Of a stretch of DNA of 64,000 bases, positions 662 to 62,386 are shown piece after piece (position 1 is the first letter of the stretch; each line of letters begins with the position of its first letter). Source of the DNA: a virus; IMG/VR virus record IMGVR_UViG_3300037237_000386, positions 12,919-76,918 of that record; one strand, 5' to 3'. The notes below the pieces were generated by a model that worked only from the letters and a program-made list of their open reading frames with translations, was not told where the DNA came from and ran no database searches. Made by a program: the position numbers and the translations under genes.

Positions 662-677
662 GGAAACCCGGGTTTCC
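662..677. repeat. 16-bp palindrome GGAAACCCGGGTTTCC, copy 1
   Basis: Read directly; 1 nt after the TGA at 658-660. Confidence 0.97.
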
Positions 678-698
678 CCCGGGGCGAGTAGAAAGCGG

Positions 699-727
699 TT
701 TACAAGTATCGCGGTAGGGAGCAGATT
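699..727 (+). promoter_or_regulatory. sigma70-like promoter TTTACA-N17-CAGATT
   Basis: Shares ACAAGTATCGCGGT with the promoter at 23040; lies upstream of the sigma factor gene. Confidence 0.55.
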
Positions 728-768
728 GCAGGACCCGGGCGCAACCGGGATCACGGAGGCCGAAGGCC

Positions 769-1425
769 ATGGGACACCCGGTGTTGGAGCGTGGATTGTT
801 GGCGGTGCGTGACGGACGCGAGACGTTCGACAGCTTCGCGAGAAGGACGATGCCGCATTGGGAGCGGCTGGCGCAGTACATCCTCCGGCGCTGGAGGCAG
901 CCGGCTTGGGTGAGCGACGCGGACGTGGTGCAGGACCTGCTCGTGGCCGCCTACGACGCCGTCTGGACGTACGATCCGAGCAAGGGTCCGACCATCGAGG
1001 GGTACGCCGTGTACTCGGCCGTCGATCACGCGAAGAAGCGGGCGCACAAGGCGCGCGGTGCCAAGCTCCACCGGACCGCGGACCGGAACCCGAGCCGGAT
1101 GGAGCTGGGGACGGTCACTCTTTGGGGCGAGGACGCTCCCAGGCGCGTCGAGGAGGCGCTGCAGCAGGAACCCACGCAGGAGGACGCCCTGACGCAGCGG
1201 GAGGCCCTCCAGAGGGCGCTGGCGGTGTGCAGGAGCGAGGGGGAGCGGTGCGTCATCCGGACGCTCGCCCAGGCGGCGGACCTCGTCGAGGGAGCCATGA
1301 TGCTGTACGCGGACCCGGAGGCGAGGCTAGCGTGCCGGCTGCTCAACGAGACGCACGCGGCACGCGTGACGACGGAGGTTGTGCTGGAGGTGGCTGAGCG
1401 GCTGCAAGATGGGGCCGCGGCTTGA
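769..1425 (+). CDS. phage RNA polymerase sigma factor (sigma70 region 2-like)
   Basis: DADVVQDLLVAAYDAVWTYDPSKGPTIEGYA resembles the region 2 pattern D(L)xQ...A...(F/Y)DP.(K/R)G..F..YA. Confidence 0.75.
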   Translation: MGHPVLERGLLAVRDGRETFDSFARRTMPHWERLAQYILRRWRQPAWVSDADVVQDLLVAAYDAVWTYDPSKGPTIEGYAVYSAVDHAKKRAHKARGAKLHRTADRNPSRMELGTVTLWGEDAPRRVEEALQQEPTQEDALTQREALQRALAVCRSEGERCVIRTLAQAADLVEGAMMLYADPEARLACRLLNETHAARVTTEVVLEVAERLQDGAAA

Positions 1426-1495
1426 GGGCAGGACGCCCGGGAGCCGAGGTGGCGACCGGGTGAGGACGAGGACGAAAGACGGAGGCGCGAATCAC

Positions 1496-2665
1496 ATGGG
1501 AACAGCGGCGGCGAAGAAGCAGGAAAAGGGAACGGTCATCAACGGGGTGCTCCTCGACAAGGCGAAGGAGGCCATCATCCTCAAGTCGCTGAAGGCGCAG
1601 AAGCTGGAGGGCAAGAAGGGCGAGCCGCTGGATACGCTCGTCATGCGCCTGGCGATGCACTTCAAGGAGAAGGGCAATGGCACGGACGACGATCCGAAGG
1701 AGCTGATGGAGTGCGATGCGGAGGCGGGTGGTTGTGGAGGCGGGAGCTTCCGCGAGCTGGCGGCGTGCCCCTTCTGCGGGATGGTGAACGACGACGCGGG
1801 TAGCGGCAGCGGCAGCGACAGCAAGGACGACCGTCCGAGCACGCCCAGCGCGCTCGCGGGCACGAACCCGAAGGCGCAGGAGCCCGAGGCGGCGCGGAAG
1901 ACGAGCGCCATCGCGAGTGCGAAGAAGCTCGACGAGGCGGTGGCCGAGGTGCAGCGCCTGAAGGGCGCGTACGCCGGGAGCAATTGGGACCTCGGCAAGA
2001 AGGTGCTCGAGATTTTCACGGAGGGCACGTGGAAGCTGCGCCTCGACGACAACGGCAAGGCGCGGTGGAAGGGGTTCGACAGCTTCTGCCACGCGGAGCT
2101 CGGTCTCTTGCCGAATCAGGCGTTCGACGTGATGGACCTCGCCAAGAACTTCACGCGTGAGCAGATGCTGACGCTCGGCAAGGCGAAGCTGAAGCTCATC
2201 GCGCAGGCGCCCGAGGAGGACAAGCAGAAGCTCCTGGAGCAGGCAGCCAAGGGCGGCAAGGACGGCAAGGGCGCTACGAAGCGCGAGATCGAAGCCGAGG
2301 TGCGGCGCATCAAGAAGGAGAAGGGACACCGTCGCGCGAGCCGCGGCGGCCAGGCGAAGGGCAGCACTACGGCGGGCGCGGGTGGTGGCAGGAAGCCCAA
2401 GCCGGCGGAGGACAAGGTCACGGTCAGCCAGATGGTGGGCAAGGTCACCGTCAAGCTGTTCCAGAAGCCGGCGAACGTGAAGAAGTTCGACCCGAAGGAG
2501 CTGAAGCGGGCCAAGACGGTCGGCAAGGTGCCGTGGGGTCGGAACGTGCTGCTGAACGGCGTCGTGCAGTCGTTCACGGTGCGGGAGAACGGGGCCGGGG
2601 AGCTGGAGCTCGTCGTCGAGACGGCGCGCGAGGAGGCACCCGAGCCGACGAAGGCGGCGAAGTAG
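1496..2665 (+). CDS. Lys-rich putative DNA-binding protein (Zn ribbon plus DUF3102-like helical domain)
   Basis: Cys pairs CDAEAGGC...CPFC; segment WDLGKKVLEI...WKGFDSFCHAELGL..NQAFDVMDLA; GGAGG RBS before ATG 1496. Confidence 0.5.
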   Translation: MGTAAAKKQEKGTVINGVLLDKAKEAIILKSLKAQKLEGKKGEPLDTLVMRLAMHFKEKGNGTDDDPKELMECDAEAGGCGGGSFRELAACPFCGMVNDDAGSGSGSDSKDDRPSTPSALAGTNPKAQEPEAARKTSAIASAKKLDEAVAEVQRLKGAYAGSNWDLGKKVLEIFTEGTWKLRLDDNGKARWKGFDSFCHAELGLLPNQAFDVMDLAKNFTREQMLTLGKAKLKLIAQAPEEDKQKLLEQAAKGGKDGKGATKREIEAEVRRIKKEKGHRRASRGGQAKGSTTAGAGGGRKPKPAEDKVTVSQMVGKVTVKLFQKPANVKKFDPKELKRAKTVGKVPWGRNVLLNGVVQSFTVRENGAGELELVVETAREEAPEPTKAAK

Positions 2666-2837: not shown

Positions 2838-3122
2838 ATGAGCGACGACATGCCGTGCACGGCGTGCGACGGACACGGGCGCGTGCCCCTGAGCCAGGAG
2901 TTGCAGGACAGCCTCGACAAGGTGCGCGAGGGCGGTGTGGAGACGGCGGAGGACCTCTGGAAGACGATGGCGAAGGGGTTGTGGAAGACGGCGGCCGTCA
3001 ATCGTCTGGAGAGGCTCCGCACGCTCGGGTACTTGGAGCGGACGAAGCGAGGCCGCACGTGGCATTACTCCGCGAGGACCGCGGCGCAGGTGGTCGAGGT
3101 GAAGAAGCGACAGCGGCGCTGA
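2838..3122 (+). CDS. Zn-finger/winged-helix protein
   Basis: CTACDGHG motif plus NRLERLRTLGYLERTKRGRTWHY, a wHTH recognition helix and wing. Confidence 0.55.
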   Translation: MSDDMPCTACDGHGRVPLSQELQDSLDKVREGGVETAEDLWKTMAKGLWKTAAVNRLERLRTLGYLERTKRGRTWHYSARTAAQVVEVKKRQRR

Positions 3123-3145
3123 CGCGCGCCAAGACGGGCGTCATC

Positions 3146-6100: not shown

Positions 6101-7027
6101 GTCACGGCGAAGCGCTATGCCGGCTGGTACAAGCACTTCAAGGGCAACGCGCCGAAGGCGGACGCGAAGCCCGAGGTGAAGGGCCTGGAGTACAAGCGGG
6201 GCGACAGCACGAAGCTCGCGCGCGACCTGCAGGTGCGCGTCGTGGAGATGCTGATGAAGGGCGAGGAGGGGATGGAGGCGTTCCATGAGCTGCTCTCGCA
6301 CGCGCGACAGCACGTGCTCGAGGACGCGCTGCCCCTGGCCGAGGTGGTGATGCGCAAGGAGCTCAGCAAGGCGCTGCGCGAGTACGCGGTGAAGAAGAAG
6401 AAGGACGGCGAGGACGCGGCGCAGTCGCCGCACGTGGTCGTGGCCAAGATGCTGAAGGCCCGCGGCCAGGACGTCAGTGCCGGCACACGCGTCGGCTACG
6501 TGGTGCTCGACGACGAGGCGGAGGACCCGGCGAAGCGGTTCATGCCGGAGGAGGACTACAAGGGCGAGTGCGACCGGCACTACGTGTGGCAGTCGCTCGT
6601 CTACCCGCCGACGATGCGCCTCCTCGAAGCAGCGTTCCCCGATGCGGACGCGGTGAAGCATTGGGAGGCTTGGGCCAAGAGCCGCCCGAGCAAGAAGGCC
6701 CTGAAGGCGCTGGAGCAGGGGCAGGGAGCTCTCTTCAAGTCGGAGGAAACCCGGGTTTCCCCCACGGGTCTGCGGACGACAGCGCCTCCCACGCTGGCGA
6801 GCACTCAGCCTTACGAGGCGGTCGTCGACCAGGACAAGTTGGAGGCGGCCGGGGGCCTGGAGGTGCTGCTCGCGGTCGCGCAGCGGCATCCGGGCAAGCG
6901 GATGCTCAAGCTGCGGCTGCGTCTCGACACGGGGGCGGAGGCGGCGATGGACACGGCGGTGCGCGTGGATGGTGGCGGGGCGCTGGCGCGGAAGCTCGCC
7001 CTCTTCCGGCACGTTGCTGCGTCGTGA
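3146..7027 (+). CDS. family B DNA polymerase containing an intein
   Basis: Exonuclease motifs DIETD, WNG...FDFP, YMMRDV; polymerase motifs DFAGMYPSII, KVATNIFFG, YGD/TDS, KRYAG, VKGLE. Start placed at ATG 3146 because the upstream in-frame region overlaps other genes. Confidence 0.95.
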   Translation: MGDVYGAGYVNGYVDGSRVTLLSRGAGGRLQRSQVPAEHVAYFRKDELPPELEKLLLRNCAGAKLEDGGWMRFALPEHVRRNVCIEDVWKNASGEKRDNPFAAVPSYEGDVDPVRRFLTDSKATVARPRRAYTDIETDSRVPFNRKHEMRVLSWGLQAHDTGEMRVGVLQADTDGAEAELLGQWWEAMEEFDQVAAWNGGEADPDGDGFDFPVIMARSEHVKLRGVDPRRFLYVDQLEAFRRMNQHASESGEEKQSMKLDSIAHILLGAGKDDFDASHTWEAWAAGGPERRRLVKYMMRDVDLLRQIELKTQFLDLFSTLCGVFHMFADTRGLNPTQQVDAYMLGFLRERGLHRPTKKRIEKGEKFKGGYVMNPPRFVGVEKDIHVADFAGMYPSIIRSWNMSHETKAANAPVNGPVPEGFCRCPKTGTSFTTAEEGLLSIAVGNLIENRKKYRKLKASLAPGSPEFADADRLSDSYKVATNIFFGVVGSPFSPYFDKQIAEGITQNGVWLIEHTIAAAEKRGWFVGYGDSVTGDRTVVLRSPAGRTVIKPVEEVFEDGCDVVRARDKEFVFMQGWEALARDAKGREGWYPLTQVVRHRTCKELVRISTKRGETEVTSDHSIMSGGREVKPDEFLAAGARFEKVDAQEGRKLERVDLFEYLTDFKVSYASRGRVRVKEFFVTADGEWVGLRMRGSTKQYIRRFYDAGSERFRALLRVMGAYLAEGSASIRKLTATRDMFSIGQSDPDWLAPLQKDLASFTQGVETDLMPTGGGMWAIRSGAALLPYAFAALCGFRSSGKRFPDFVYDLADDDFAEMKRPMVEGDGHVVEPDVWRSRALRRSPGHEFSYTTKSQVLMAGFSYALDQRGFEHAIHYRPEKRCWTLRTRPTGTERPNRQRVLVSRRKAEDEWVYDLTVEGAHTFVDGIGRVLLHNTDSIYVKGPTKAEFEAFTKWCNEELYPPLMKQVGCPRNVVNLEYEKEFERIVFVTAKRYAGWYKHFKGNAPKADAKPEVKGLEYKRGDSTKLARDLQVRVVEMLMKGEEGMEAFHELLSHARQHVLEDALPLAEVVMRKELSKALREYAVKKKKDGEDAAQSPHVVVAKMLKARGQDVSAGTRVGYVVLDDEAEDPAKRFMPEEDYKGECDRHYVWQSLVYPPTMRLLEAAFPDADAVKHWEAWAKSRPSKKALKALEQGQGALFKSEETRVSPTGLRTTAPPTLASTQPYEAVVDQDKLEAAGGLEVLLAVAQRHPGKRMLKLRLRLDTGAEAAMDTAVRVDGGGALARKLALFRHVAAS
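4736..5941 (+). mobile_element. intein with LAGLIDADG homing endonuclease, inserted in the YGD|TDS motif (402 aa)
   Basis: Starts SVTGD after YGD and ends VYDLTVEGAHTF...LLHN before TDS; block B TSDHS; LAGLIDADG-like GAYLAEGS and MVEGDG; codon usage differs from the extein. Confidence 0.93.
6745..6760. repeat. 16-bp palindrome copy 2 (in the polymerase C-terminal linker, ETRVS)
   Basis: Read directly. Confidence 0.97.
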
Positions 7028-14787: not shown

Positions 14788-15137
14788 TGGGGACCATGAG
14801 CGGCAAGACGAACGGCACGACGGGACCGGCGACTCACAAGCCCGTGGAGGAAACCCGGGTTTCCCTCAAGACGGTGCGCTACCGGGTGGAGGGCAAGCGT
14901 GTCTTCGTCATCTACGCGGCGGACGCGAGCGAGGCCCTCGACAAGATCAACGAGGCCTGCGCCTCGGGGACGAAGGTCGTGCATGGGTTCGACGAGGTGG
15001 CCCTGGCGACGTTCGCGCCGTTCCACGTCCTCGGGTCGGAGGGAGGGATCACGGACGAGGGTGAGCTCAGCTTCGGGCTCGGGGGCGAGGCGATGCTCTG
15101 CGCGGACAATGCGCCCGCGCGCGAGACGCGAAAGTGA
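14784..15137 (+). CDS. hypothetical protein
   Basis: ATGA overlap; contains ETRVS. Confidence 0.55.
   Translation: MMGTMSGKTNGTTGPATHKPVEETRVSLKTVRYRVEGKRVFVIYAADASEALDKINEACASGTKVVHGFDEVALATFAPFHVLGSEGGITDEGELSFGLGGEAMLCADNAPARETRK
14849..14864. repeat. 16-bp palindrome copy 3
   Basis: Read directly. Confidence 0.97.
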
Positions 15138-15673: not shown

Positions 15674-16369
15674 GTGAGGAAGAAGGCGAAGAGGGCCCCG
15701 GCGCAGAAGCCGGCGGGCAAGGCGGCGCCGAGTGTTGTCGGCAAGGTGGAGATGGCGGCGCTCGACCTCGTGCGCCCGAACACCTGGAACCCGAACCGGC
15801 TGACGCCCTTCGAGAAGCGAGCGCTCAAGCACGGGCTCGAGCACGACACGTGGCTGCCGAGCCACGCGCTCACGATCTGGAGGACCGACGAGAAGGGCAA
15901 GAAGAAGATGCTCGTCATCGACGGCGAGCACCGCTGGACCGCCGCCCGGGAGCTCGGCCTGAAGGAGGGACCGATGGTGTTCCTCGACGGGCTGACCGAG
16001 GCCGAGGCGAAGGCCTGGACCGTGAAGCTCGACGCGAAGCGGGGCAAGTTCGACGAGGACAAGATGGGCCCCCTCCTCCGGAGCCTGGAGCCGACGATGG
16101 ACGTGGAGACGCGAGCGCTCGACCTCGGCATCGACGAGGACCGCCTCGTGCGGTACCTCGACGACGAGCCGGACAAGGCCGTGGTCGGCGAGCTGCCGAG
16201 CGGGCAGCGGGCGAGCGTGCGGCAGGTGCAGCTCTTCTTCCCGCAGGCGCGCTACGACGAGTTCCAGAAGATGGTGCGGGAGATGGCGGGGAGCCTGAAG
16301 ACGAAGAACGTGACCGACACGGTGCTGGAGGTGGTCCGCCGTGCGGGCGCAGCTGCAGCTCCGAAGTAG
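15674..16369 (+). CDS. ParB/Srx N-terminal-domain protein, paralogue A
   Basis: VRPNTWNPNRL...LVIDGEHRWTAARELG (GxxR patch); C-terminal strand-helix-helix. Confidence 0.85.
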   Translation: MRKKAKRAPAQKPAGKAAPSVVGKVEMAALDLVRPNTWNPNRLTPFEKRALKHGLEHDTWLPSHALTIWRTDEKGKKKMLVIDGEHRWTAARELGLKEGPMVFLDGLTEAEAKAWTVKLDAKRGKFDEDKMGPLLRSLEPTMDVETRALDLGIDEDRLVRYLDDEPDKAVVGELPSGQRASVRQVQLFFPQARYDEFQKMVREMAGSLKTKNVTDTVLEVVRRAGAAAAPK

Positions 16370-16391
16370 CCACCCGGACGCCCACGTGAGG

Positions 16392-17260
16392 ATGCTCGTG
16401 GGCAAGAGGGGTGTGGCCGAGGACGCGCCGGTGCTGCTTGCGGGCGACGCCAGCGCGTTCAAGCCGAACGGCGAGCGCCTCCTGACGCTCGTGCGCGGGG
16501 CCATCGATCGGAGGGTGATCGACGCGGCGTGGCCCTTCATGTGGGGGCTGCGAAAGCACGTCAGCACGAACCGGGGAGCCTACGGCGGGGACGACGCGCT
16601 CGACGACGGGCGCGCGAAGGTGAAGTCGGGCGGGGTGCGGTACAGGGCCGTCAAGCAGGATGGGACCGTGAGCAAGACGAACCACGCGAACCCGGTGCGG
16701 AGCGTGGTCGCGGGGGCGTTCGACCGCAGCCCGCGCATCCCCTTTTGCCGGCAGACGGCGTACAGCACGGACGAGCCGGAGAAGTGGGGCGCGGCGCTGC
16801 CCTTCGTGCAGGCGGTGGGGGAGCTGTTCCGCGACGTCGTACCGGACCGGGCTGCGGCGCAGCGCGAGCAGGCGGAGAAGACGCACCCGGCGTACGTGAT
16901 CCCGGGCACACCCTTCACGACCATCACCGTGAACAACACGGTCGCCGGCACGTACACACGGACAAGGGGGACTTTCACCAGGGGTTCGGTGTGATGGCGG
17001 TCATGCGCCGGGGTCACTACCGCGGGGCAGAGCTCGTGTTCCCGAAGTACGGCGTGGGTGCGGACCTGCAGCACGGCGACGTCATCTTCTTCGATCCGCA
17101 CGAGGTGCACGGCAACCTGGCGTTCCGTGAGGGCATCGGCGTGGAGGCGGAAGATTGGGCTCGGATCTCGATGGTCATGTACTTCAGGACGCGCATGGTC
17201 GATTGCCTGGAGCCGAGGGCGGAGTTGGAGCGCGCCAAGGGCGTGCGAGGAGAGGTGTGA
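16392..17260 (+). pseudogene. TET/JBP-family 2OG-Fe(II) dioxygenase split by a -1 frameshift near 16955 (pseudogene, recoding or sequence error)
   Basis: Frame 1 gives PFCRQTAY...GTPFTTITVNN..GTY; frame 2 continues HTDKGD (HxD), GAELVFP, GDVIFFDPHEVHGN (distal His), RISMVMYFR (2OG Arg). Confidence 0.8.
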
Positions 17261-17907
17261 TGGGCAAGCGGAAGAAGCCGACGGTGAGTGCGGTGGTCAA
17301 CTCGCCGCTGACGGGCGTGAAGCCGAATCCGTGGAATCCGAACCGACTGACGGCGTTCGAGAAGGAGAGCCTGAAGTTCGGCATCCGTGAGGACGGGTGG
17401 CTCGCCAGCCACGCGCTCACCATCTGGCGCACGGACGAGAAGGGCAGAGAGAGGAACCTGGTCATCGACGGCGAGCACCGGCTGGTGGCGGCGCTGGAGC
17501 TCGGGATGACGGTCGGCCCGATGTGCTTCATCGACGGGATGAAGGAGAGCGACGCGAAGAAGCTCACCATCAAGCTCGACGCGAAGCGCGGCAAGTTCGA
17601 CCAGGAGCTCCTGCAGACGCTCGTCAGGAGCATCGCGGATGGCCTCGACCTGGAGACGAGGAGCCTGGCCCTCGGCATCGGTGAGGACGTGCTCGGGGAG
17701 ATGCTCGACACGACGCCGGATACACCCGTCGTCGGGGAGCTCGGCAGTGGCAGGACGAGCGACACGAAGGTGGTCACGTTGTTCTTCACGCCCGAGGGAC
17801 ATGACGAGTTCCTGAAGGTGGCCAAGGAGCTGGCGGTGCGCTTCAAGCAGCAGACGACGAGCGACACGGTGTTCGAGGCGGTGCGAAGGGCGAACGCCGC
17901 AAGATAG
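17260..17907 (+). CDS. ParB/Srx N-terminal-domain protein, paralogue B
   Basis: KPNPWNPNRL...VIDGEHRLVAALELG...KLDAKRGKFD; aligns by eye with 15674..16369 over its full length. Confidence 0.85.
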   Translation: MGKRKKPTVSAVVNSPLTGVKPNPWNPNRLTAFEKESLKFGIREDGWLASHALTIWRTDEKGRERNLVIDGEHRLVAALELGMTVGPMCFIDGMKESDAKKLTIKLDAKRGKFDQELLQTLVRSIADGLDLETRSLALGIGEDVLGEMLDTTPDTPVVGELGSGRTSDTKVVTLFFTPEGHDEFLKVAKELAVRFKQQTTSDTVFEAVRRANAAR

Positions 17908-20480: not shown

Positions 20481-22663
20481 TGCCGAATCCCGACCAGGTG
20501 CAGCTCAAGGTCAACGAGGCGCGCGGCGGCGTGAAGCGGCTGAAGGAAGCAGTCGCCACGCGGGCGCAGGTGCAGCGTGTGCAGGACGGGGACGACGAGC
20601 TCACGCTGCTCGGGCAGATTGCGTTGCACCTGGCGGAAGCCATCGAGGCGCTCGCCGGGGAGCTGCAGGGACACCGGGACAGGCACGCGGCTGGAAGGGG
20701 ACGATGATGAACGACCGAGCGGCGTGGAGCGTGAGCGAGCTGGCGGAGAGAGGTGGCTACGTCATCCACGAGGAGACGGGGACCGTCGGCCGGGCGAAGC
20801 GGATGTGGTCGGGGGACGACGGCGACGCGTGGGTGAGCCCCGTCAACGGGCAGTCCGTGAAGGCGCCGGTGCTCGAGCTGCAGACGGGCGACGCCTTCGT
20901 GCTGAAGGACGCGGACACCTTCACACCGCTGACGGCGAAGGAGGTGGAGGTGTTCGAGGGGTTGCAGCAGATGGTGACGCACGCCACGACTATCGCGGGG
21001 AGCCTCGCCGCGGCCTCTGGCGTGCCCCTGGAGCAGTTTGCGCGCCTGGGGGCGGCAGTGCTCCGGGCGCAGCAGCTGGCGCTGGAGAGGGCCGTCCTCG
21101 GGGTGGTAATGGCCCAACTGGACGTGCCACTGTCCCCCGAGGCCGAGGCGGCGCTGCAGGCGGGCATGGAGAGCGCGAGGCGGGGCGAGGTGGCACCGCT
21201 CGTGCTGCCGGAGGCGAAATGAGCCAGGACCAGGGACCGAGCCTCACGCGTAGCGCGGCGCACAACGCGGCGGCTGCGCTGGTGACGATGTACGCGGGAG
21301 CAATCGCGGACGCGGAGCGGGAGATCGCGCAACTGCGGGCGATGGTGGAGCGGACCTCGACGCTGCTCGGGCAGACGGTGAAGCAGCGGGACGAGGCGCA
21401 GGAACGGGCCTCCGACGCAGCCGCGACGACGCAGCGTTGGAAGGACGACTACGCACGCGAGGCGCAGGCGTACGCCGCCGTCTACTCGGTCGTCGAGGAG
21501 GTGAGGGAGGCGATGCCGCGGCTGCGTGAAGCGGGGTTCACGAGGCTCGTCGAGATGTGGGACGCGGCGAGCAAGCCGTATCCGAAGCCTGGGGAAACCC
21601 GGGTTTCCCCCGAACCCGAGCACGTGGCAGGCTGACGTCCATGGCGACGATGAGACACGGACGGGCAACGGGGCTGGCGGCGCTGCTGTCGGTGGTGAGC
21701 ACGCAGCCGGTCGTGCGCAACGACAACGAGCCCGGGCCCTCGAAGCCGGACCCCGACGGTGGACCCACGATCCTGAAGCAGGTGGACGTGACGCGGGGCA
21801 CGGCGGAGTTCATGAACCGCTATCGGAAGCACCTGCACCGGTACGGGTGCGTCGAGTTCGAGGTGCCGCGAGGCATCACGTTGCCGCCTTGGATGCACGT
21901 CGTCCTCGACACGCTGCGCATGCGCGAGCGGAACTGGCGCGTGGTCACACTCGTTGGCAAGAAGGGCGCGACGCTCCACCGGGTCGTGTGGAAGCACTGG
22001 TGCAAGCAGCTGCGCACCCGGGGCTTGCCCTTACGGGTCGTGCACGGTGCCTGAGGAGCCCAAGCTCGGGCAGCGGCACGAGTGGAGCCCCCCTTGGGCG
22101 CTCCACGTCGAGGGCTGGTACCACGACAGGCTGCCGCCCGAGGAGCCGGGACTGCCGCCCGAGGCAGCGCCGTGGGGGGCGACCTGTACGACGTGCGGCG
22201 AGACGATTCAGCGCACGTGCGCGAGCGGCATGATGCGGGGGTGGATTCAGTCGTTTGCGCGGGCGCACCTGCACCGTAGCCCGCTCGACGAGGCACCGAG
22301 GAAGGACCCGAACACGTGATGCGACTGATGGAGTTGGGATTCTTGGGGATGTGCGCGACGATGGCGCTGACGCTCGTCTTCGAGGGGGGCGTCGCGAGTG
22401 GCAAGCACGCGCAGCAGGACCCGGTGGACGACGCGCTGCTTGGGGACCTGAAGGCGTGCACGGCGAGCCTGAACGAGACGGTGGCGACGCTGCGGCGGCG
22501 CAACGACGAGGACCCGCAGATCACGTACTCGCTGCAGCACATGGCCGGCGAGATCGACCGATGCAACTCGAGGTTGCAGTGCTGCACGGCGTTCAACGTC
22601 ACGTGTGTGGAGCGGGGGTTCACGTACCAGTCGCTGCAGCAGCTGCAGGCGGGGCAACCGTGA
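20480..22663 (+). CDS. run of small coupled hypothetical genes (20480-20707, 20704-21222, 21219-21635, 21641-22054, 22047-22319, 22316-22663)
   Basis: Consecutive ORFs with overlapping or adjacent stop/start codons and typical codon usage; no recognisable motifs. Confidence 0.5.
21593..21608. repeat. 16-bp palindrome copy 4 (extends to 20 bp)
   Basis: Read directly; ETRVS near the C-terminus of 21219..21635. Confidence 0.97.
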
Positions 22664-23043
22664 AGACGAAGCGCACGACGGAGCACGCGACGGGCGACGC
22701 GGTGAATCACCCGGACCACTACAACGCGCACCCGAGTGGGGTGGAGTGCATCCGGGTCGTCGAACATATGAGCTTCAACGTCGGCAACGCGGTGAAGTAC
22801 GCGTGGCGCGCGGACCACAAGGGCACGAGCCCGGTGGAGGACCTGAAGAAGGCGGCTTGGTACATCGCGCGCGAGATCGAGCGGCTGACGAGTCCGAGCA
22901 CGATCCCGGGAGGACCGCACGCACTGGCGACGCAGGTGGTGGAGTCGTTCGTGCGGCGCTACGGGAGGCTCCCGCCGCAGGTTCGCGTGGGGGAAACCCG
23001 GGTTTCCCCCGTCCGCCGGCGGAAGGCCAAGAAACATAGTTGA
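22660..23043 (+). CDS. DUF3310-like protein
   Basis: DAVNHPDHY...ECI...FNVGNAVKYAWRADHKG...EDLKKAAWY. Confidence 0.85.
   Translation: MKTKRTTEHATGDAVNHPDHYNAHPSGVECIRVVEHMSFNVGNAVKYAWRADHKGTSPVEDLKKAAWYIAREIERLTSPSTIPGGPHALATQVVESFVRRYGRLPPQVRVGETRVSPVRRRKAKKHS
22992..23007. repeat. 16-bp palindrome copy 5 (extends to 22 bp)
   Basis: Read directly. Confidence 0.97.
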
Positions 23044-30724: not shown

Positions 30725-31381
30725 AGCGGCGTAAGCTCTGCGTGGGCACGAGGGAGCGCGACCTCGAAGGCCTGGTCAGCAACCAGGTGGTCACGGACGT
30801 AGAGCGCCGGCTGAAGCTGGGCGAGGAGTTCTGGAGAGCGCTCAAGGGAGCCCTGGTCACGGCGATGGGCGCGACGCGCGAGGGGGGTGTCAGCGTGGAG
30901 CGCCGGGGTCCTCAGGGTGCGGTGGGCGTCGAGGAGGGCATCCCGCGGGTGCTCTGCCTGCTGAGTGTCCAGGGTGGCAACGTGACGGTGCGAGCGGGGC
31001 TCGAGCTCGTGCCGGGCAAGGAGCGCACGAGGCCGGGGACGGTGACGAGCATGGTGGGTCGGAGTCGGGGGAAACCCGGGTTTCCCCCAAAGCAGTGAAC
31101 CGAAGGAGGCAGTGATGGACGACGACAAGATCGTGTTGGGTGGTGTGGAGCACAACTTGGTGGACGTGATGCGGGCGGTGGGCGCGCAGCTTGCGGCGAG
31201 GAGGAAGCAGAACGCGGGCAGCATCGGGATGTCCAAGGTGAAGGTGGAGCAGTCGGTGACGGTGCGGCTGTCGGAGTGTGACGACGCCGTGCTGGCGGTG
31301 AAGGTGCAGCTCGTCGACGACTACCCGCCGAACGTCGGTCCGATCTGCTTCGCGACGAGGCCCGTCGAAGCGCGAGCCTGA
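30721..31381 (+). CDS. two hypothetical genes (30721-31098, 31112-31381)
   Basis: ORFs between the putative terminase subunits. Confidence 0.45.
31070..31085. repeat. 16-bp palindrome copy 6 (extends to 22 bp)
   Basis: Read directly; read as GKPGFP at an ORF end. Confidence 0.97.
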
Positions 31382-34297: not shown

Positions 34298-35999
34298 GTG
34301 CAGTTCGATCCCGCATCCGTCGCGGCGCTGCAGGCGACGCTCCTCGCGCGGGCGGTGGCGCAGCAGTTCGCGTTCACGACGACGGCCACGGCGCAGCTGT
34401 ACATCCAGCACTACGCCGTGAGCGCGCCGAGGCCGGTCTCGAGCTCGCGCGTGATCATCACGTGGAGTGCGGTCTATCGGAGCCCGACGAGCACCGTCTA
34501 TCAGCCGGACGGCAAGAGCGTGGCCTACGTCACGGGAGGCGTGGAGCGGGGCTTCGGTCCGGAGAGCATCGTGGTGGACGCGGCGCAGCAGCTCGTCGGC
34601 CAGGGCCTCCTCCTGCAGCACGCCAAGGCGTGCTTCGACCAGCATGACCAGCGCATGAAGAACGTGGGCCTGGTGCCGCAGCGACTGCCCTGAGGGGAAA
34701 CCCGGGTTTCCTCCGGCGGCATGACGCCCGGCATGGCTGAGGACTGTCAGCACGGGGACGTGCAGCGGGAGGTGGTCAACGCGGGAGGCGAGCGCACGTG
34801 CGTGTGGTGCGAGGTGGCGCGCCTTCGAAGGGAGCTCGCGCTCGTCCACGGGGACAGAGCCATCTTCGAGCAGCGAGCCGGTGACGCGGAGCGGGAGCTC
34901 ACAGCCACGAAGCGAATGCTTGGCCAGGAGATCGCGGCGCGCGCGAGGGCGGAGCAGCGCGCCAATGATGCGGAGAGGAGGACGACGCGATGAGCCGGTC
35001 GAACAAGGCGAGGCACGGGACTGAGTGCAAGACGCGGAAGGACACGATGTACGCGGCGAGGTGCCAGGCCCGTGCGAGGGCGAAGCGTAAGCAGCGGGAG
35101 CATCAGCAGGACAGGGCGAAGGCCAAGCGACAGGAAGCGCGAGAGGTTGGTCGATGAGCTGGTGGGAGTGGTGCTCGAGGGTGGTCGCGGGGGTGGCGCT
35201 GATTCTGTTCATCGCGGAGCTGCGCCGCCGCGCGAAGGCCAAGGGGTACGCCGAGGGCTACGCGAAGGGCATGGCGGACGAGCAGGTGCTGCGCGCCCAG
35301 GGGGTGCCCATCGGGGTCACGATGCGTGTGCTCCCGGGCAAGGAGACGGTCGCGGACAAGGAGGCGGAGCTCCGCATGCACGCGGGTTTGCCGCCGAAGA
35401 AGGAGAGGACCAATTGAAGTCGCTGCTGGAGTTCAAGTGCGAGGACAGGATCGGGACGAACCCGGACGTGGCGGCAAGCATCGTGTGGCACGTCGTGAAG
35501 AAGGCGGGCGACCAGAAGCTGCACGTGACGGAGGTGCGCATCGCGATCAGGAGCGTGTTCGTGGAGATCGAAGTGCCCGACGAGCTCTCGCGGTTCGACG
35601 CGGACGCGTACTCGAGGGTCGTCGGCGAGCAGTTGAAGGACGCGGTAGTGGAGGGGGCGAGGGTGGCGACGACACTCTCAAGGCGGACCGATGAAGGCCG
35701 GGGTGAGGCGATTTTGGTGGGTCATGCAACATCGTCGCCCATCCGCTGATGGTGGTGTGGCCTCGGGTGGGCGAGAGGCTTCACGAGTGGACCGGACGGA
35801 GGATGTGATGGCTGAAGAAAAGTACCCGTGTCCGTGTGGCCGTGCACCGTTCGGGCAACCCATCATGGTGCCGTGTCGGTGTGGCGCGAACTGGTGTGAG
35901 GCTTGTGCTCACACGAAGTGCCACGTCGATCCACCCGTCGCCGGTACGACGATCCCGAACGGCGGTGACTGGCGAGGGGCAGCCGGAGGCCCGTTTTGA
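34298..35999 (+). CDS. small hypothetical genes (34298-34693, 34721-34993, 35154-35417, 35414-35749, about 35808-35999)
   Basis: Consecutive ORFs; 35154 has an N-terminal hydrophobic helix. Confidence 0.4.
34696..34711. repeat. 16-bp palindrome copy 7
   Basis: Read directly; 2 nt after a TGA. Confidence 0.97.
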
Positions 36000-38352: not shown

Positions 38353-38359
38353 AGGAGAG

Positions 38360-38891: not shown

Positions 38892-41139
38892 ATGAGTGAA
38901 GGTGGAATCCGAAGTGCCGTCACCGTGCACCTGTCATTCTGGGACCGCGTCCGTGTGCTCTTCGGGGCGCGCATGGTCGTGTACCTGGACACGAATGTGG
39001 AGAAGGACCCGGGTCGCCTCGTGAGCGAAGAGTCGCACGTGTGCATCGGTGAGCCGAAGGGTGGGCAGTTGATAGCGGAGTGCCGCGCTAGCCTGCGCGC
39101 GAAGAGGAACGGAACGAGGAGGACGTGATGGATCAAGCCGAGCTGGATGAGCAGGAACGATTCGACCGCCGTAAGGCGCGCGAGAAGGTGGAGACACGTC
39201 GCCAGGAGTTGAGGTCGGCCGTCGTGCGGCGGGCACGTGACCTGCGCGACAAGTCATCGGGCGACCCGGATCTGGCGCCGGAGTGGGAGGCGCTGGACGA
39301 CGCCCTCCACGCACTCGACGACTTCGCCGCGAGTCAGGAGCCGATGCCGTGAAGCGTTCGGGACGTGTGGCGTCTGTCGGCTCACGGTGAGGGCGTGCGA
39401 GCGCGACGGCGCCGAGGGGCGCGATCTGGTGTGCGGCGGGTACGCGCTGCGCAGGGGTGCGCGGTTGGACGATCTGAAACGCGCCGAGTGATGCGCGCTG
39501 CACCCTACGGATGTGCACGACGAGCGCGGGTGCTGCATCATGGGAGGCATGCCATGCAAGCACGGACTGAACCCGCAAGCGTGCCTCCCCTGCTTCCACG
39601 AGAAGCGAAACGCGGCCCCCACGTCGAAGCCGGCGGAGCGTGCGCCGGTGCCCAAGAACAACGTCATCGACGCGGTGAAGCAGGCTCGCCTCGACGCGCA
39701 GCAGGCGGAGGGAGCCGTCAACATTCGTCTGAGGGCCGCTGGGCTACCCAATCTGCCGCCGGGCACGGACGTGCTCGAGCCGACGGTGCACGTGGGTCCG
39801 ACGCGTGTGGGCTACGAGAACGACGGCACGCCCATCGCGCAGCCCAAGCAGGAGGACCCGGAGCTCGGCAGGCCCAAGGTGAGGGGCAAGATGCCGGTGC
39901 CGGTGCTGCACGGGGGAGCGGTCGCGGGTCAGGCGCAGAAGACGCTGGAGCCATTTAGCTACGCGAGCGCGAAGCCTTGGCACACGAAGACTGTCACTGT
40001 CGCGGGCGTGCAGCAGACCATCGCGGTGCCCCCGCGACACGGGAGCATCATCGACAGTCTGCCGAGGCACCCGAACCCGGAGCCAGCGCTCCGGCGCTGA
40101 CGGAAACCCGGGTTTCCCCCGCGGCATGACCCTTCGCATGGAAGACGGGGACCGGAAGCGGCTGAAGCTCCTGATGACGGCGATGAACGAGGCGCTGGAG
40201 CACAACAAGCTGCTCGACGCGCTGGCGGAGCTGGCACCGCTACTGACAGAGGACGACGAGCTGCAGGCGGCCGGGGCGTTCGTCGGTGCGGCGAGCGCGT
40301 TCGCGGCGGCGAGGAAGGCGCTGCTCGACGTGGTGGCGCAGCCGCACGTGACCAAGCTGCGGCAGAAGCTGCAGTCGTGAGCAACATCGTACCGATCAGG
40401 AAGTGCAGGACCTGCGGGAAGCCAGCGACCCGGAGGACGCTTGCCCTGAACGATGTGCCGGTGGTCGACTTCAACTCGTGCGATGAGTGCGTGGGGGAGA
40501 CGGATGCCGAGCTCGCGCGAGCGAGGCCGGTGTTCGATGCGATGATCGGGGCGGGTGTACCGAGGGATGTGGCCAACGACGCGATGACGTTCTTGCTCGA
40601 TCGGTGGAAGCCGTGAGGCGAGCCTGGAAGACGGGCGACTGGGCGGACCGCGGGGGCATGGCGAGCTACCTGCACATGGTACGTGCGCCGGATGACCCGG
40701 AGAGGACACCGCCGAACGGCAAGGACAGGACGGCGCTCTGGCGCAGGCAGCTGAAGAAGGCGAGCGTCGAGGTGTGGATGGAGCGGCTGCTCATGCACCT
40801 GGCCGAGCACGGCGCGATGACGTTCAACAGGGCGTGCGTGGAGCTCGTCGACAAGACGGCGGACGTCGTGCACGGGACGGCACTCGACGAAGCTCTTTGG
40901 ACGCTGGTGAGCCGGGGACACGTGGAACACACGACCAAGACACCCATCAAGTTCAGGGCAAGGAGGACAGTCTGATGCCGACCTTGGAACAGATGGAGCG
41001 GTGGACGCTGATGATGGAACGGTTTGCCGCGCACACGGGGGCGGAGATGCGCCAGGAGACGCTGCGCATGCAGAGGGAGTCGGTGCGGGAGCGAGAGGTC
41101 AAGGAAACCCGGGTTTCCCTGGAGACCACGGACGGCTAG
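38892..41139 (+). CDS. small hypothetical genes (38892-39128, 39125-39352, 39513-40100, 40126-40380, 40377-40616, 40613-40975, 40975-41139)
   Basis: Mostly coupled ORFs with typical codon usage. Confidence 0.45.
40102..40117. repeat. 16-bp palindrome copy 8
   Basis: Read directly; 1 nt after a TGA. Confidence 0.97.
41103..41118. repeat. 16-bp palindrome copy 9
   Basis: Read directly; ETRVS. Confidence 0.97.
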
Positions 41140-42234: not shown

Positions 42235-42523
42235 ACGCGACATGATGGGGGACGTGAAGGCAGACGACACGATCCCGCCGGACACGCTGACGAGCACAAT
42301 CCCGAGCCCGCCGGAGTTCGTTGTGGGTGTGGACCTCGGGTACGGCGACGACTGCATGACGGCGACGATCCTACGCCGGGAGGGCGAGCGGTACGTGGTG
42401 GAGGGCGTCGAGTTGGAACCCCCGCAGACGACCTTGGAGCGATTCGCGCTGAGGGAAACCCGGGTTTCCCTCGAGGGCTTCGAGGACATCGACCTGGCGG
42501 CGGAGCACCTCGACGACGAGTGA
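42227..42523 (+). CDS. hypothetical protein
   Basis: Contains VGVDLG and ETRVS. Confidence 0.45.
   Translation: MTERDMMGDVKADDTIPPDTLTSTIPSPPEFVVGVDLGYGDDCMTATILRREGERYVVEGVELEPPQTTLERFALRETRVSLEGFEDIDLAAEHLDDE
42454..42469. repeat. 16-bp palindrome copy 10 (extends to 22 bp)
   Basis: Read directly. Confidence 0.97.
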
Positions 42524-45905: not shown

Positions 45906-45921
45906 GGAAACCCGGGTTTCC
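45906..45921. repeat. 16-bp palindrome copy 11
   Basis: Read directly; 1 nt after a TGA. Confidence 0.97.
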
Positions 45922-49437: not shown

Positions 49438-49476
49438 TATCGTCGGAGACGGGCACTCCCTCGGGCCCCGCTTAGA

Positions 49477-49538: not shown

Positions 49539-49546
49539 CTGTTCGC

Positions 49547-50323: not shown

Positions 50324-50339
50324 GGAAACCCAGGTTTCC
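50324..50339. repeat. 16-bp palindrome copy 12 (variant GGAAACCCAGGTTTCC) in a divergent intergenic region
   Basis: Read directly; one mismatch. Confidence 0.93.
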
Positions 50340-50383
50340 CCCACCCGGGATGCCTGCTACGCGTGGAGGCGGAGGCGCAACCC

Positions 50384-53235: not shown

Positions 53236-53501
53236 GCGCGCTCTCGAGGCTGAGGGAGCGCGCGGGGGCGGCGCTCGTGCGCGCGGGCGTGAGGCTGATG
53301 GGTCTGCGGCCCGGCGATGAGCTCGACCTGGAGGAAACCCGGGTTTCCCCCGAGCCGACGGTGCCGCTCGGACCCGGCGCAGCGCTCACCGCGAGCTCGG
53401 CGCGGATGATCGAACCGATGGTCGTGCAACCCGAGGCTGCGAAGGACGAGCAGGTGGACGAGCCGCTGCGTGGTAGCTTGGAAGCGCGCGGCGAGCGATA
53501 A
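53232..53501 (+). CDS. hypothetical protein
   Basis: ATGA overlap; contains ETRVS. Confidence 0.5.
   Translation: MSALSRLRERAGAALVRAGVRLMGLRPGDELDLEETRVSPEPTVPLGPGAALTASSARMIEPMVVQPEAAKDEQVDEPLRGSLEARGER
53333..53348. repeat. 16-bp palindrome copy 13
   Basis: Read directly. Confidence 0.97.
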
Positions 53502-58303: not shown

Positions 58304-58319
58304 GGAAACCCGGGTTTCC
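58304..58319. repeat. 16-bp palindrome copy 14
   Basis: Read directly; 1 nt after a TGA and 11 nt before TTGACA. Confidence 0.97.
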
Positions 58320-60396: not shown

Positions 60397-60495
60397 CTTC
60401 TCCTGGCGGGAGCGGGTAGCTTCTTCTCGAACACACCCCGGAGGACGCCCATGGTGGGCGAGATGCCGGACCAGTGAACGCAAGGAGAAGCGTCA

Positions 60496-61371
60496 ATGTC
60501 CCTCGCCACCCTCACGGGAGCCACCACGGGCAGCGCCACGTCGCTCGCCCAGATGCTCAACCGAATCCTCATCGGCCAGCTGCCGAGTGCCCTGAATCAG
60601 CTCGCCCTCGGGCAGATGCTGCGGCAGCAGATGCCCATCACGCTGCGGCGCTGCAACCCGGTCATCGCGGCGACAGCGCCGATCCCGAACCCGTATTTCG
60701 TCGCGGGGCAGAGCGTCGCGGAGAACACCGTCGCGAACCCTGCAGGACCCGGCGGGAGCGGCGGCTCGGCTCCCCTCGTGCCCACGGCGGCTTCGGTCAC
60801 GCCGGGCGCGAACATCCTCGGGCAACTGCCCGACGACGCGAAGTGCCTGTCCATCGTGCGGGCCGTGCCCGTGGCGGGCACCGGGACGCTCATCGACCTG
60901 GTCATCGACCTGCCCCCGGCGAACGTGACGAGCTTCGCCACGGGCGGCACGGGCCCCGGCGCGGGGCACATCGGTGTCAGCCCGAGCGGCGACATCGTGG
61001 CGAACGCGACGGACGCGTGGACGAGCCTCGACGTCACGTACATCCCCGACCACAACGATTGCATCGAGTACGCGGCGCTGTCGGTCGTGGCGGCTTCGGG
61101 CATCTGCGCGCTGCCGGTGGCGGCGACCACGCAGGGAGTCGTCATGCTCATGGAGGCGGAGAGCCTCGCCGGCACGGTGACGGGCAAGTTCGCCATCCTG
61201 CCGCCCAGCGCCAGCAACCCGGGTGCGACGAAGCAGTGCAACCTGACGGCCATCAAGACGGGCGTCCTGTTCAAGGCGTCGGACGCGGTGACCAGCGCAC
61301 GCATCAAGCTGGGCCTCGTCAGCGCGGTGAACCAGAACCAGCTGCTGGAAGCGGCGAGCACGTTCGTCTAG
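60496..61371 (+). CDS. virion structural / head decoration-like protein
   Basis: AAGGAG RBS; Ala/Thr/Gly-rich; followed by a terminator. Confidence 0.55.
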   Translation: MSLATLTGATTGSATSLAQMLNRILIGQLPSALNQLALGQMLRQQMPITLRRCNPVIAATAPIPNPYFVAGQSVAENTVANPAGPGGSGGSAPLVPTAASVTPGANILGQLPDDAKCLSIVRAVPVAGTGTLIDLVIDLPPANVTSFATGGTGPGAGHIGVSPSGDIVANATDAWTSLDVTYIPDHNDCIEYAALSVVAASGICALPVAATTQGVVMLMEAESLAGTVTGKFAILPPSASNPGATKQCNLTAIKTGVLFKASDAVTSARIKLGLVSAVNQNQLLEAASTFV

Positions 61372-61386
61372 GGCACGGACAACGCG

Positions 61387-61422
61387 AGGGGGAGGCCGGC
61401 TCGGTGCCTGCCTCCCCCTTTT
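61387..61422 (+). terminator. intrinsic terminator
   Basis: AGGGGGAGGC...GCCTCCCCCTTTT. Confidence 0.7.
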
Positions 61423-61443
61423 CACGTCTGAAGGGAGAGCGAG

Positions 61444-62370
61444 ATGGCTGAAGCAGCAGGGGCGCAAGGTACGGAGCAGCAGGGAACGCCGGGGACCGCG
61501 GGAACGCCTCCTCCGGGCACGAACGGGGCGCCGCCGGCAGGAGCGGCGGGGGCAGGCGGGGGGACGCAGCAGACGCCTCCCAAGGCCAAGGAGGACCCGC
61601 CCGCGAGGACGGAGCCGAAGAGGCACAAGCTGGAGGCGGACGGTGAAGTGCCGGACGACGCAGAGGTGCTGGAGCTCTCCCCGAGGGCGCTCAAGAGCAG
61701 GCTGGCGCGCAGCACGGCGACGGAGCTGAAGAAGAAGTTCGGCACTGACGACGTGGACAAGATCGCGGCGGACCTGAAGGAGCTCGCCACCTACCGCGAG
61801 GAGAAGGAGAAGAAGCGCAAGGCGGAGCTGTCCGATCTCGAGCGCGAGCGCGAGGAGCACGAGAAGACGAAGGGTCGGGCGACTGCGGCCGAGGCGAGAG
61901 CGCGCGAGGTGAGCGAGCTGCGCGTGTTCGACAAGGAGGACCGACGCATCAGCAAGGTGGCCGGCAAGTACATCGACGAGGACTACGTCGATGAGGAGAT
62001 GAACAAGTTCGCCGCACACCTGACCAAGACGTTCACGGACAAGGAGCTGAAGAAGCTCCGCGGCGCGGGCTTCGAGGAGGAGGCGGAGAAGTACTTCAAG
62101 GGACGCGTCGAGAAGAAGCCCAAGCTCGCGAAGGACTACGAGGAGACGCGGAGCAAGGAGATCGCCCAGGAGCTCAAGGACATCGCCGCGGGCCGGACAC
62201 CGAAGAAGAAGGTGACGAACGGGGCGGACGTGAGCGGGCGCAAGAAGCCGGAGCCCACGGAGGACACGGGCGGTCCCAAGACGTTCGCGCCGGGCAAGAA
62301 GAACAGCATGAGCGACAAGGAAGTCCGCGACGAGCTGAAGAAGCGGAACGGCGGGCGGATGCCGTACTAG
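61444..62370 (+). CDS. capsid scaffolding protein
   Basis: Low-complexity N-terminus, highly charged coiled coil (AELSDLERERE), directly before the capsid gene. Confidence 0.7.
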   Translation: MAEAAGAQGTEQQGTPGTAGTPPPGTNGAPPAGAAGAGGGTQQTPPKAKEDPPARTEPKRHKLEADGEVPDDAEVLELSPRALKSRLARSTATELKKKFGTDDVDKIAADLKELATYREEKEKKRKAELSDLEREREEHEKTKGRATAAEARAREVSELRVFDKEDRRISKVAGKYIDEDYVDEEMNKFAAHLTKTFTDKELKKLRGAGFEEEAEKYFKGRVEKKPKLAKDYEETRSKEIAQELKDIAAGRTPKKKVTNGADVSGRKKPEPTEDTGGPKTFAPGKKNSMSDKEVRDELKKRNGGRMPY

Positions 62371-62386
62371 GGAAACCCGGGTTTCC
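62371..62386. repeat. 16-bp palindrome copy 15
   Basis: Read directly; abuts a TAG. Confidence 0.97.

Follow-up and report, generated by a model that had tools for sequence, protein, structure and literature searches.

The Palindrome Array and Its Setting

The stretch of DNA described here is a 64-kb window (bases 12919–76918) of the IMG/VR virus contig IMGVR_UViG_3300037237_000386, which spans 76,918 bp, is estimated to be 83% complete, and represents a phage genome labeled G000 below; positions are those of the window unless a locus label (L) is given. Scattered through the window is a 16-bp perfect palindrome, GGAAACCCGGGTTTCC, of which a pattern search found 14 exact copies and one copy with a single mismatch (GGAAACCCAGGTTTCC, at 50324), and all 15 coordinates given in an earlier, sequence-only reading of the window proved right (Table 1). 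The expected number of matches at two or fewer mismatches is 0.02, and none of 100 shuffles of the window reached 15. The whole contig contains 17 copies, two of them upstream of the window, and 16 of the 17 are identical; the density is approximately one site per 4.5 kb in a genome with a GC content of 65–70% along its whole length. Lone half-sites are nearly absent, as 17 of the 18 occurrences of GGAAACC in G000 lie within full sites.

Genes were called with a codon-usage model of our own, and almost all genes of G000 lie on the plus strand. Nine of the 17 copies are intergenic, five fall within the last 4–18 codons of a gene, and three lie deeper in called open reading frames (ORFs); nine copies are fully intergenic even though 93% of the genome is coding (P = 5e-7). 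Six copies begin 0–2 nt past a stop codon (662, 34696, 40102, 45906, 58304, and 62371) and one (50324) occupies the only divergent gap, as had been reported, and the eight copies said to lie in ORFs do so, seven of them being read as ETRVS and one as GKPGFP. Five of these eight (21593, 22992, 31070, 41103, and 42454) are located 13–54 nt before the stop codon and are therefore still at gene boundaries. The copy at 14849 may lie upstream of the true start of its ORF, and the copy at 31070 is 315 nt upstream of the terminase large subunit gene (31386–33038), with an 88-amino-acid ORF (31115–31381) intervening. The GAA and GTT codons of the in-frame copies had been described as unusual for this genome, and they are: GAA makes up 6.8% of Glu codons and GTT 3.0% of Val codons. 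TCC, at 6.7% of Ser codons, is rare as well.

A motif that marks assembly or adapter junctions had been named as a finding that would refute the earlier reading. Six independent assemblies carry it, and the array is not an assembly artefact: four separate peat metagenome runs yielded contigs that read through the sites, and no base differences were reported there. Metagenomes of peat and permafrost from 16 studies contain the phage.

Table 1. Palindrome copies and selected genes of the window.
Feature	Position	Strand	Setting or remarks
Palindrome copy	662..677	no strand	1 nt past stop codon; TTTACA promoter-like box starts 21 nt downstream
Palindrome copy	6745..6760	no strand	In frame (ETRVS), C-terminal tail of family B DNA polymerase, 267 nt before stop
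Palindrome copy	14849..14864	no strand	Between SbcC-like gene end (14787) and possible GTG start ~9 nt downstream; called within ORF
Palindrome copy	21593..21608	no strand	27 nt before stop of upstream gene
Palindrome copy	22992..23007	no strand	36 nt before stop; conserved promoter-like element starts 32 nt downstream (23040)
Palindrome copy	31070..31085	no strand	GKPGFP frame, 13 nt before stop
Palindrome copy	34696..34711	no strand	2 nt past stop, 9 nt before next ATG; occupies entire spacer
Palindrome copy	40102..40117	no strand	1 nt past stop, 8 nt before ATG
Palindrome copy	41103..41118	no strand	21 nt before stop of small gene
Palindrome copy	42454..42469	no strand	54 nt before stop of upstream gene
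Palindrome copy	45906..45921	no strand	1 nt past stop, 31 nt before next gene
One-mismatch copy	50324..50339	no strand	Only divergent (start–start) gap, between the single minus-strand gene and gene 50363–50956
Palindrome copy	53333..53348	no strand	Inside small ORF, 159 nt upstream of portal-like gene
Palindrome copy	58304..58319	no strand	1 nt past stop; TTGACA-N17 promoter-like element starts 11 nt downstream
Palindrome copy	62371..62386	no strand	Directly past TAG stop of putative structural-module gene 61444–62370; then separate hairpin + T-run terminator
Candidate binder, 401 aa	1460..2665	+	In 8/8 near-complete genomes, between sigma and PolB genes
ParB N-domain-like protein, paralogue 1, candidate binder	15674..16369	+	
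ParB N-domain-like protein, paralogue 2	17257..17907	+	
ECF-like sigma factor	769..1425	+	In 8/8 genomes; profile search against solved structures matches CnrH at 7.7e-7

Related Phages Carry Private Palindromes

An exact scan of 2.9 million viral contigs for the 16-mer returned nine other contigs, five of them with many copies, and no close relative of the phage was found in GenBank. Counting the motif in related phages, which had been proposed as a check, gave 21, 18, 23, 13, and 7 copies at two or fewer mismatches in the five relatives with the same core. These relatives, with GC contents of 55.5–71.6%, are distant: 0.2–20% of G000 aligns with them, at ~68–70% identity, and core proteins are 30–47% identical across the same-core genomes. 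Profiles of TerL (A1) and PolB (A7) reached still more distant relatives, three of which (G178, G179, and G180) were fetched whole. Each has a palindrome of its own, 18–20 bp long and found in the same contexts as the G000 sites: ACGGATGATCGATCATCCGT in G178 (17 exact copies, or 18 with one mismatch in the 16-bp core, the count used in the spacing test below), TGTTCACCCGGGTGAACA in G179 (21 copies), and CCGCGCCGCGCGGCGCGG in G180 (16 copies). G178 (L292–L296; 91,125 bp, 68% GC) contains zero CCCGGG and zero GGGCCC hexamers, which looks like strong restriction-site avoidance.

Among 26 PolB-anchored loci there are ~20 distinct half-sites. Many of them have a ACCCGGGT center in common (for example, CCCAAACCCGGGTTTGGG, GGGAACCCGGGTTCCC, and GACGGAACCCGGGTTCCGTC), and others, such as TCTTGAGGTCGACCTCAAGA and ACCGCAACACGTGTTGCGGT, are unrelated to this type. 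Thirteen loci have no such repeat, and the trait is therefore common but not universal.

Several positions are held in common despite the differing palindromes. A site lies upstream of the SF2 helicase gene in six of eight genomes, before the portal gene in G000, G002, G005, and G180, and past gene 61444–62370 and its orthologues in G000, G004, and G178. The site at the end of PolB is in frame at the same relative place in G000 and G002, and it stands directly past the stop codon in G179. In a tree of six concatenated core proteins (2602 columns), G003 groups with G179 (support 100/100) and G004 with G178 (99/98); because of these two pairings, the GGAAAC core is spread over more than one branch, and its five genomes are not a single clade.

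The sites are real, strongly selected at the DNA level, and part of a family-wide system. As judged from sequence, the palindromes would be best explained as operator-like sites for a sequence-specific dimeric DNA-binding protein, a putative binder, and this reading is about as likely as not.

Placement, Spacing, and Promoter-like Elements

Across nine genomes, sites occupy 8 of 25 divergent start–start gaps, 100 of 990 tandem junctions, and 2 of 25 convergent gaps (divergent versus tandem, P = 0.003), counts that are approximate because some minus-strand gene calls are weak. In the five same-core relatives, the sites mostly lie 0–25 nt past a stop codon and 10–60 nt before the next start. The distances between successive sites have a coefficient of variation of 0.45–0.69, compared with 0.9–1.0 for randomly chosen gene boundaries, and the spacing is more even than chance in seven of eight genomes (P < 0.001 to 0.02).

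A promoter-like element of ~30 nt, consisting of TTKACA, 17 nt, and a −10-like box such as CATACT, occurs at 699, 23040, and 58331 and at L205:9596. All four of these TTKACA-N17 elements in G000 trail a palindrome, by 11, 20, 21, and 32 nt, which places the palindrome centers at about −55, −64, −65, and −76; with four cases, a location on about one helix face is suggestive. Three related ideas were tried and dropped. The palindrome is not the −35 box of a phage sigma factor promoter, as none of the genomes shows a conserved −10 box at a constant distance from it; no general association with TTGAC boxes was found across the family; and no small gene family recurs directly downstream of the sites, where it might have hinted at autoregulation.

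The spacing and placement bear on the possibility that the palindromes are selfish REP- or MITE-like elements (repetitive extragenic palindromes or miniature inverted-repeat transposable elements), tolerated in spacers and gene tails and replaced over time. Identical copies within a genome, the wholesale turnover of the palindrome between sister lineages, and the perfect extended palindromes of G004 (described below) are what such an element might leave behind, and other selfish elements do reside in this genome, namely homing-endonuclease inteins in the UvrD-like helicase and probably in PolB. Nevertheless, an element of this kind is quite improbable here, given the even spacing, the retention of positions across lineages with different palindromes, the in-frame copies at the same PolB place in G000 and G002, and the persistence of the same core at only 30–47% core-protein identity. 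Moreover, the 83% complete contig gave no match to Y1_Tnp (the Y1/RAYT transposase), to a tyrosine recombinase, or to Phage_integrase, and target-site duplications are not apparent in the flanks listed.

Symmetry of the Sites and Their Folding Potential

The information content of the sites is limited to a sharp symmetric block of 20–24 bp and is zero beyond about ±11 nt; no second element at a fixed distance from the palindrome was found in any genome. The bases that flank the core are symmetric and constant within a genome, and they differ between genomes (TT/AA, ATT/AAT, AAT/ATT, GTC/GAC, and G.G/C.C).

Two genomes use more than one half-site. G004 combines GGAAACCC with the variant GGAATCCC in three pure GGAAACCC sites, four hybrid sites, and six pure GGAATCCC sites, and G003 combines GGAAACCC with the variant GTAAACCC in nine, 13, and one sites, respectively, the 13 being hybrids. 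By our own calculation, the half-sites assort independently (chi-square ~1.6 in G004 and ~1.9 in G003). Hybrids as frequent as independent assortment predicts fit two half-sites that are read independently, whereas a base-paired stem would select against them. Likewise, the positions that border the 20-bp site of G178 do not co-vary (8 of 17 pairs, versus 9.1 expected). In G004, six of the 13 sites are perfect 28-bp palindromes (for example, at oriented positions 2814, 18874, 26825, 59673, 65601, and 80614; L060–L064).

These observations can be set against the proposal that the palindromes act as RNA or single-stranded DNA hairpins at transcript ends, as factor-dependent terminators, processing sites, or 3′-end stabilizers, possibly together with an RNA-binding protein. 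A stem of 6–8 bp with a CCGG loop is possible, but the 36-nt folds have energies of −9.5 to −19.5 kcal/mol and z-scores of +0.3 to −1.8, no better than shuffles, and at copy 45906 the best RNA fold leaves the palindrome unused. The location of most copies 0–25 nt past a stop codon in all genomes is what the proposal expects, and so are the promoters that follow several sites in terminator–promoter style; yet it is the divergent gaps, which contain no transcript end, that are enriched in sites, and the convergent gaps are not. No copy is followed by a T-run, as an intrinsic (rho-independent) terminator would be, and a consensus scan of the coding strand in the first 20 kb found no terminator-like site. 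Canonical terminators with a hairpin and T-run are present separately in G000, at 61372–61443, in the convergent gap at 49438–49546, and directly behind site 62371 (z = −4.3). The outer flanks of G004, which co-vary into 28-bp perfect palindromes, speak for a structure, while the hybrid half-sites, which break pairing, are as common as chance predicts. A purely structural role also leaves the identical sequence of all copies unexplained, and the Rfam 15 covariance models gave no meaningful match in the window or in the bacterial look-alike loci described below. Taken together, a hairpin role appears very improbable.

A Bacterial Look-Alike and the Question of a Host Factor

The sequence-only reading had named a generic repeat of the host chromosome as something that would undo its interpretation. 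A related repeat is found in some bacteria, which touches on this objection without bearing it out: the hairpin GGAAACC-N-GGTTTCC, with the same 7-nt arms, is abundant in five metagenome-assembled genomes (MAGs) of the Chloroflexaceae/Chloroflexales, where GGAAACC-N(1–2)-GGTTTCC occurs 272–2182 times per ~5-Mb genome (control pattern, 0) and the 16-mer at one or fewer mismatches occurs 27–130 times. There, however, the repeat is nearly always a 15-mer, a form that the phages never use. An exact scan of 185,579 species genomes for the 16-mer gave, among the matches listed, scattered single ones at about the chance level, the exception being 11 of 120 stretches that came from the same five MAGs.

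The MAG copies cap ~34-nt hairpins whose lower stems covary and which are grouped into mosaic clusters. In this they fit REP/BIME (bacterial interspersed mosaic element) sequences associated with RAYT (REP-associated tyrosine transposase); the phage sites, being single, exact, and without a Y1_Tnp match, do not. Both kinds of repeat are short, extragenic, and located past stop codons, and their GGAAACC/GGTTTCC arms are identical, but the bacterial copies are 15-mers with a variable center, long covarying lower stems, and tandem mosaic clustering, whereas each phage copy stands alone as an exact 16-mer between fixed flanks. At the MAG loci L081, L110, and L187–L204, the mosaic is built of the hairpin modules GGGGAAACCNGGTTTCCCC, GAGGGCGCAGCCCTC, and CCGCGGGCGGGG, often bounded by inverted copies of CTAACGTGAACATAGG; module GGGGAAACCNGGTTTCCCC reaches up to 2182 copies per genome. 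The phage-type hairpin recurs as an 18-mer between two tRNA genes of a bacterium with ~55% GC (metagenome loci L315, L316, L359, and L383, among others), where the 18-mer may instead fold in a shifted register, as AAACCCGGG-GAAA-CCCGGGTTT with a T-run behind it. A possible prophage relative with two copies in a 9.4-Mb "delta proteobacterium" MAG was rejected, since the copies flank a DnaB homologue that is probably the host's own and no other gene of the phage family matched.

The look-alike raises the possibility that a host factor reads the phage sites, or that the sites copy a host repeat, with phages of the same host converging on one palindrome and a host switch forcing a new one. This would accommodate a motif that is polyphyletic on the phage tree, sister phages that bear different palindromes, and the lack of any phage protein that tracks the motif (see below). 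The bacterial repeat is limited to a sub-clade, being present in 7 of 61 sampled genomes of the family and in 3 of 121 of the class, the MAG loci have a GC content of 63–69%, like the phage, and phages that bear sites for a host regulator, such as CtrA, are a known precedent (PMC9437464). Other details speak against a host factor. The phages use only the 16-mer with a CCCGGG center and never the 15-mer that dominates in the MAGs, where the exact 16-mer accounts for only 4–6 of the copies listed for G006 and G007; none of the phage flanks is like those in the MAGs (TGG...CCA, with covarying stems); and a palindrome match amounts to only seven independent bases. The same hairpin occurs in unrelated soil bacterial repeats and in the tRNA spacer, and chance convergence is therefore plausible. 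The phage comes from peat and permafrost metagenomes, and a scan of metagenome contigs revealed no peat bacterial contig with several 16-mers; when phage DNA was compared with those MAGs, by CRISPR or DNA matching, only the motif itself matched. Finally, ~20 private palindromes would demand as many matching host factors. A host reader or host template is thus regarded as rather unlikely.

Candidate Binders and Their Co-variation with the Palindromes

For a phage-encoded binder, the candidates begin with the protein families present in all eight near-complete genomes: the SF2 helicase, a 165-amino-acid protein, DnaB, DnaG, sigma, a protein of 355–477 amino acids, PolB, and TerL. The candidate encoded at 1460–2665, which is the window's member of the 355–477-amino-acid family, begins with an N-terminal domain, continues with a four-cysteine zinc ribbon, a basic low-complexity linker, and a ParB-type helix-turn-helix (HTH) domain, and ends in a C-terminal beta domain. 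Pfam gave no match for it, and a sequence-profile search against the PDB gave only zinc-ribbon noise, but its helical domain resembles DUF3102 and HTH_ParB clusters (ESM Atlas), and its best Foldseek matches are parS-bound ParB DNA-binding domains (6s6h, 6t1f, 4umk, and 1vz0), with probabilities of 0.99–1.0 and a root-mean-square deviation of 2.6–2.8 Å over ~130 columns, at E-values of only 0.05–0.2.

The two ParB N-domain-like (ParB-N-like) paralogues belong to a family found in seven of eight genomes, absent from G003 and weak in G179, and an alignment of their tails suggests a strand followed by two helices. As readers of the palindrome they found no support: their putative strand region groups G001 with G178 and G180, which carry other palindromes, and G003 has no such protein. 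Mantel correlations of half-site similarity with protein identity, over 26 loci and three proteins, are weak (sigma, 0.30; zinc-ribbon protein, 0.25; PolB, 0.16). Marking of DNA linked to a TET/JBP-like oxygenase is unlikely as a general role, as the TET/JBP gene occurs only in G000 and G002 in a clustering of six genomes.

Comparison with Known Systems

By analogy, the closest published case is the 17-bp repeat of the Cluster O mycobacteriophages, and the closest mechanistic model is KorB with its operators on plasmid RK2. Corndog and its Cluster O relatives carry 34 copies of a 17-bp dyad repeat that is predicted to bind a dimeric protein (PMC4351075). As in G000, a single short inverted repeat, its arms invariant, is scattered in tens of copies over a ~70-kb phage genome; many copies are intergenic or near gene ends and about a third are in coding DNA, and the phages lack an integrase and encode ParB-domain proteins (PMC4351075). 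The G000 sites likewise are many repeats with invariant arms that lie mostly at gene borders and have no link to rearrangement. The two systems differ in that the Cluster O repeat has 7-bp arms around a variable 3-bp spacer, in contrast to a 16-bp perfect palindrome with a fixed center; in that its 34 copies are denser at one genome end, in contrast to 17 evenly spaced copies; and in that five close relatives share one motif, in contrast to a very deep family with ~20 motifs.

The KorB operators (OB) of RK2 are read by a ParB-family CTP-dependent sliding clamp and are located at, near, or far from promoters (PMC11790492). The G000 palindrome is similarly dispersed at, near, and far from promoters, with four sites 11–32 nt upstream of a promoter-like element, and the phage family shares a ParB-type DNA-binding domain with a system that exerts global control of gene expression. 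RK2 has 12 KorB sites on 60 kb, roughly one per 5 kb. KorB, however, is a single protein with a CTPase N-domain, an HTH, and a dimerization domain, and it has the ParA partner IncC, whereas in the phage the ParB-like DNA-binding and ParB-N-like domains are on separate proteins, neither of which tracks the palindrome, and no ParA-type ATPase (AAA_31) was matched in the 83% complete contig.

The stoperators of Cluster A mycobacteriophages and the conserved inverted repeats of the Streptomyces phage phiC31 are also present in many copies near stop and start codons, where one phage repressor silences the genome. The G000 sites resemble them as many copies of one short site in short spacers by stop and start codons. 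Stoperators are asymmetric and oriented with transcription, and the Cluster A phages and phiC31 are temperate; the sites described here are instead perfect palindromes with symmetric flanks, and the contig has no Phage_integrase or ParA-type match and no recognized repressor.

The earlier comparison with parS and with the Noc-binding sites (NBS) holds for format only. Its sound part is the 16-bp perfect palindrome, together with a ParB-type DNA-binding fold encoded nearby. The sequence, on the other hand, is different, as the parS consensus TGTTNCACGTGAAACA is unmatched by GGAAACCCGGGTTTCC and only TGTTCACCCGGGTGAACA of G179 resembles parS half-sites; the sites are dispersed and not clustered; and the contig encodes neither a canonical three-domain ParB nor, as far as it extends, a ParA, the ParB-type fold of 1460–2665 being without an N-domain and the ParB-N-like domains residing in 15674–16369 and 17257–17907.

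Other Genes of the Phage

G000 encodes an SF2 helicase, a DnaB-like helicase, a DnaG-like primase, a family B polymerase, a UvsX-like recombinase, and an SbcC-like protein for replication and recombination. Its UvrD-like helicase contains an intein with Hint and LAGLIDADG domains (L205:9954–12918, into window 1–20), PolB (3059–7027) is 1322 amino acids long with a weak intein-splicing match, and the TerL of relative G002, at 996 amino acids, may also reflect an insertion. Further genes encode ThyX, a TET/JBP-like oxygenase between the two ParB-N-like paralogues, a methyltransferase, a terminase, and portal-like and MuF-like proteins. ThyX (19662–20480) has a zinc-finger-like insertion with Anti-TRAP and DnaJ CXXCXGXG matches at residues 50–94. 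The TET/JBP match (16341–16994) is weak (E = 2.5e-4, below the Pfam cut-off), and a PDDEXK endonuclease-family phage protein (15134–15658) is encoded just upstream of the ParB-like/TET-JBP/ParB-like run. Two segments of this otherwise tightly packed genome, 35750–36965 (1216 nt) and 37685–38401 (717 nt), have no called gene and a very negative predicted folding energy.

Interpretation

According to the operator reading, a homodimer would bind double-stranded DNA, with each subunit reading one half-site, and the full site would span ~20–22 bp, comprising the 16-bp core and two or three flank bases that vary by lineage. The sites would mark transcription-unit borders roughly every 4–6 kb, often just upstream of promoters or gene starts, and the binder, presumably phage-encoded, may act as a genome-wide organizer or regulator of phage gene expression in the manner of the KorB sites of RK2 or the Cluster A stoperators. 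Since related phages bear ~20 private palindromes at partly the same positions, the site–protein pair appears replaceable in evolution.

A number of results weigh against this interpretation. The same core is polyphyletic on the core-protein tree, and the approximately unbiased (AU) test rejects monophyly (p = 4e-74); a vertically inherited binder does not predict such a pattern unless the core is ancestral and has been replaced at least three times. The polyphyly may therefore reflect an ancestral core with at least three replacements, or the identity of the palindrome may be dictated by a factor that phages trade among themselves or that is external to them. No protein follows the palindrome: in the eight universal proteins, the columns fixed in the GGAAAC genomes and changed elsewhere number 0–2, the same as in control partitions; the ParB-N-like sub-groups cut across palindrome types; and after the removal of PolB identity, the partial rho for the ParB-DBD-like protein and sigma is no longer significant, at 0.09–0.15 (p = 0.05–0.14). 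The only family that matches the distribution of the core is ThyX, an enzyme (five of five GGAAAC genomes and none of G178, G179, and G180). TTGAC boxes follow 10 of 153 sites and 19 of 338 other spacers, which is no excess across the family, and in the 28-bp palindromes of G004 the outer three bases vary yet stay complementary, a hint of structural constraint. Thus, of the earlier proposal that a dimeric phage protein binds the sites, a dimeric protein on DNA is the best supported part, while its encoding by the phage is conjectural, as no phage protein tracks the palindrome and the motif is polyphyletic.

A broader view, speculative and unlikely, is that the palindromes constitute an evolvable lineage address system of a large family of soil and peat phages, in which a private 16–22-bp site approximately every 5 kb at fixed landmarks is read by a fast-evolving split-ParB phage machinery. 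A ParB-type DNA-binding protein and separate ParB-N CTPase-like proteins would load on self DNA, and the loaded machinery would license transcription by the phage sigma factor or DNA hypermodification. If so, swaps of palindrome and reader would isolate lineages in the way that immunity or incompatibility groups do.

For host prediction, the look-alike is a caution, in that a phage–host link finds little support in a short palindrome that happens to be identical in a family of bacterial repeats. Dispersed dyad repeats in phages, those of Cluster O among them, were described a decade ago and still lack an assigned function, and the family described here provides a natural experiment, with dozens of 85–115-kb genomes that each carry ~16–23 copies of a different palindrome at partly the same positions. 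This diversity should reveal how a whole set of cis sites is rewritten and is suited to the discovery of the reader by co-variation, and the family makes it possible to ask whether lytic phages have recruited ParB-type DNA-binding modules for genome-wide control.

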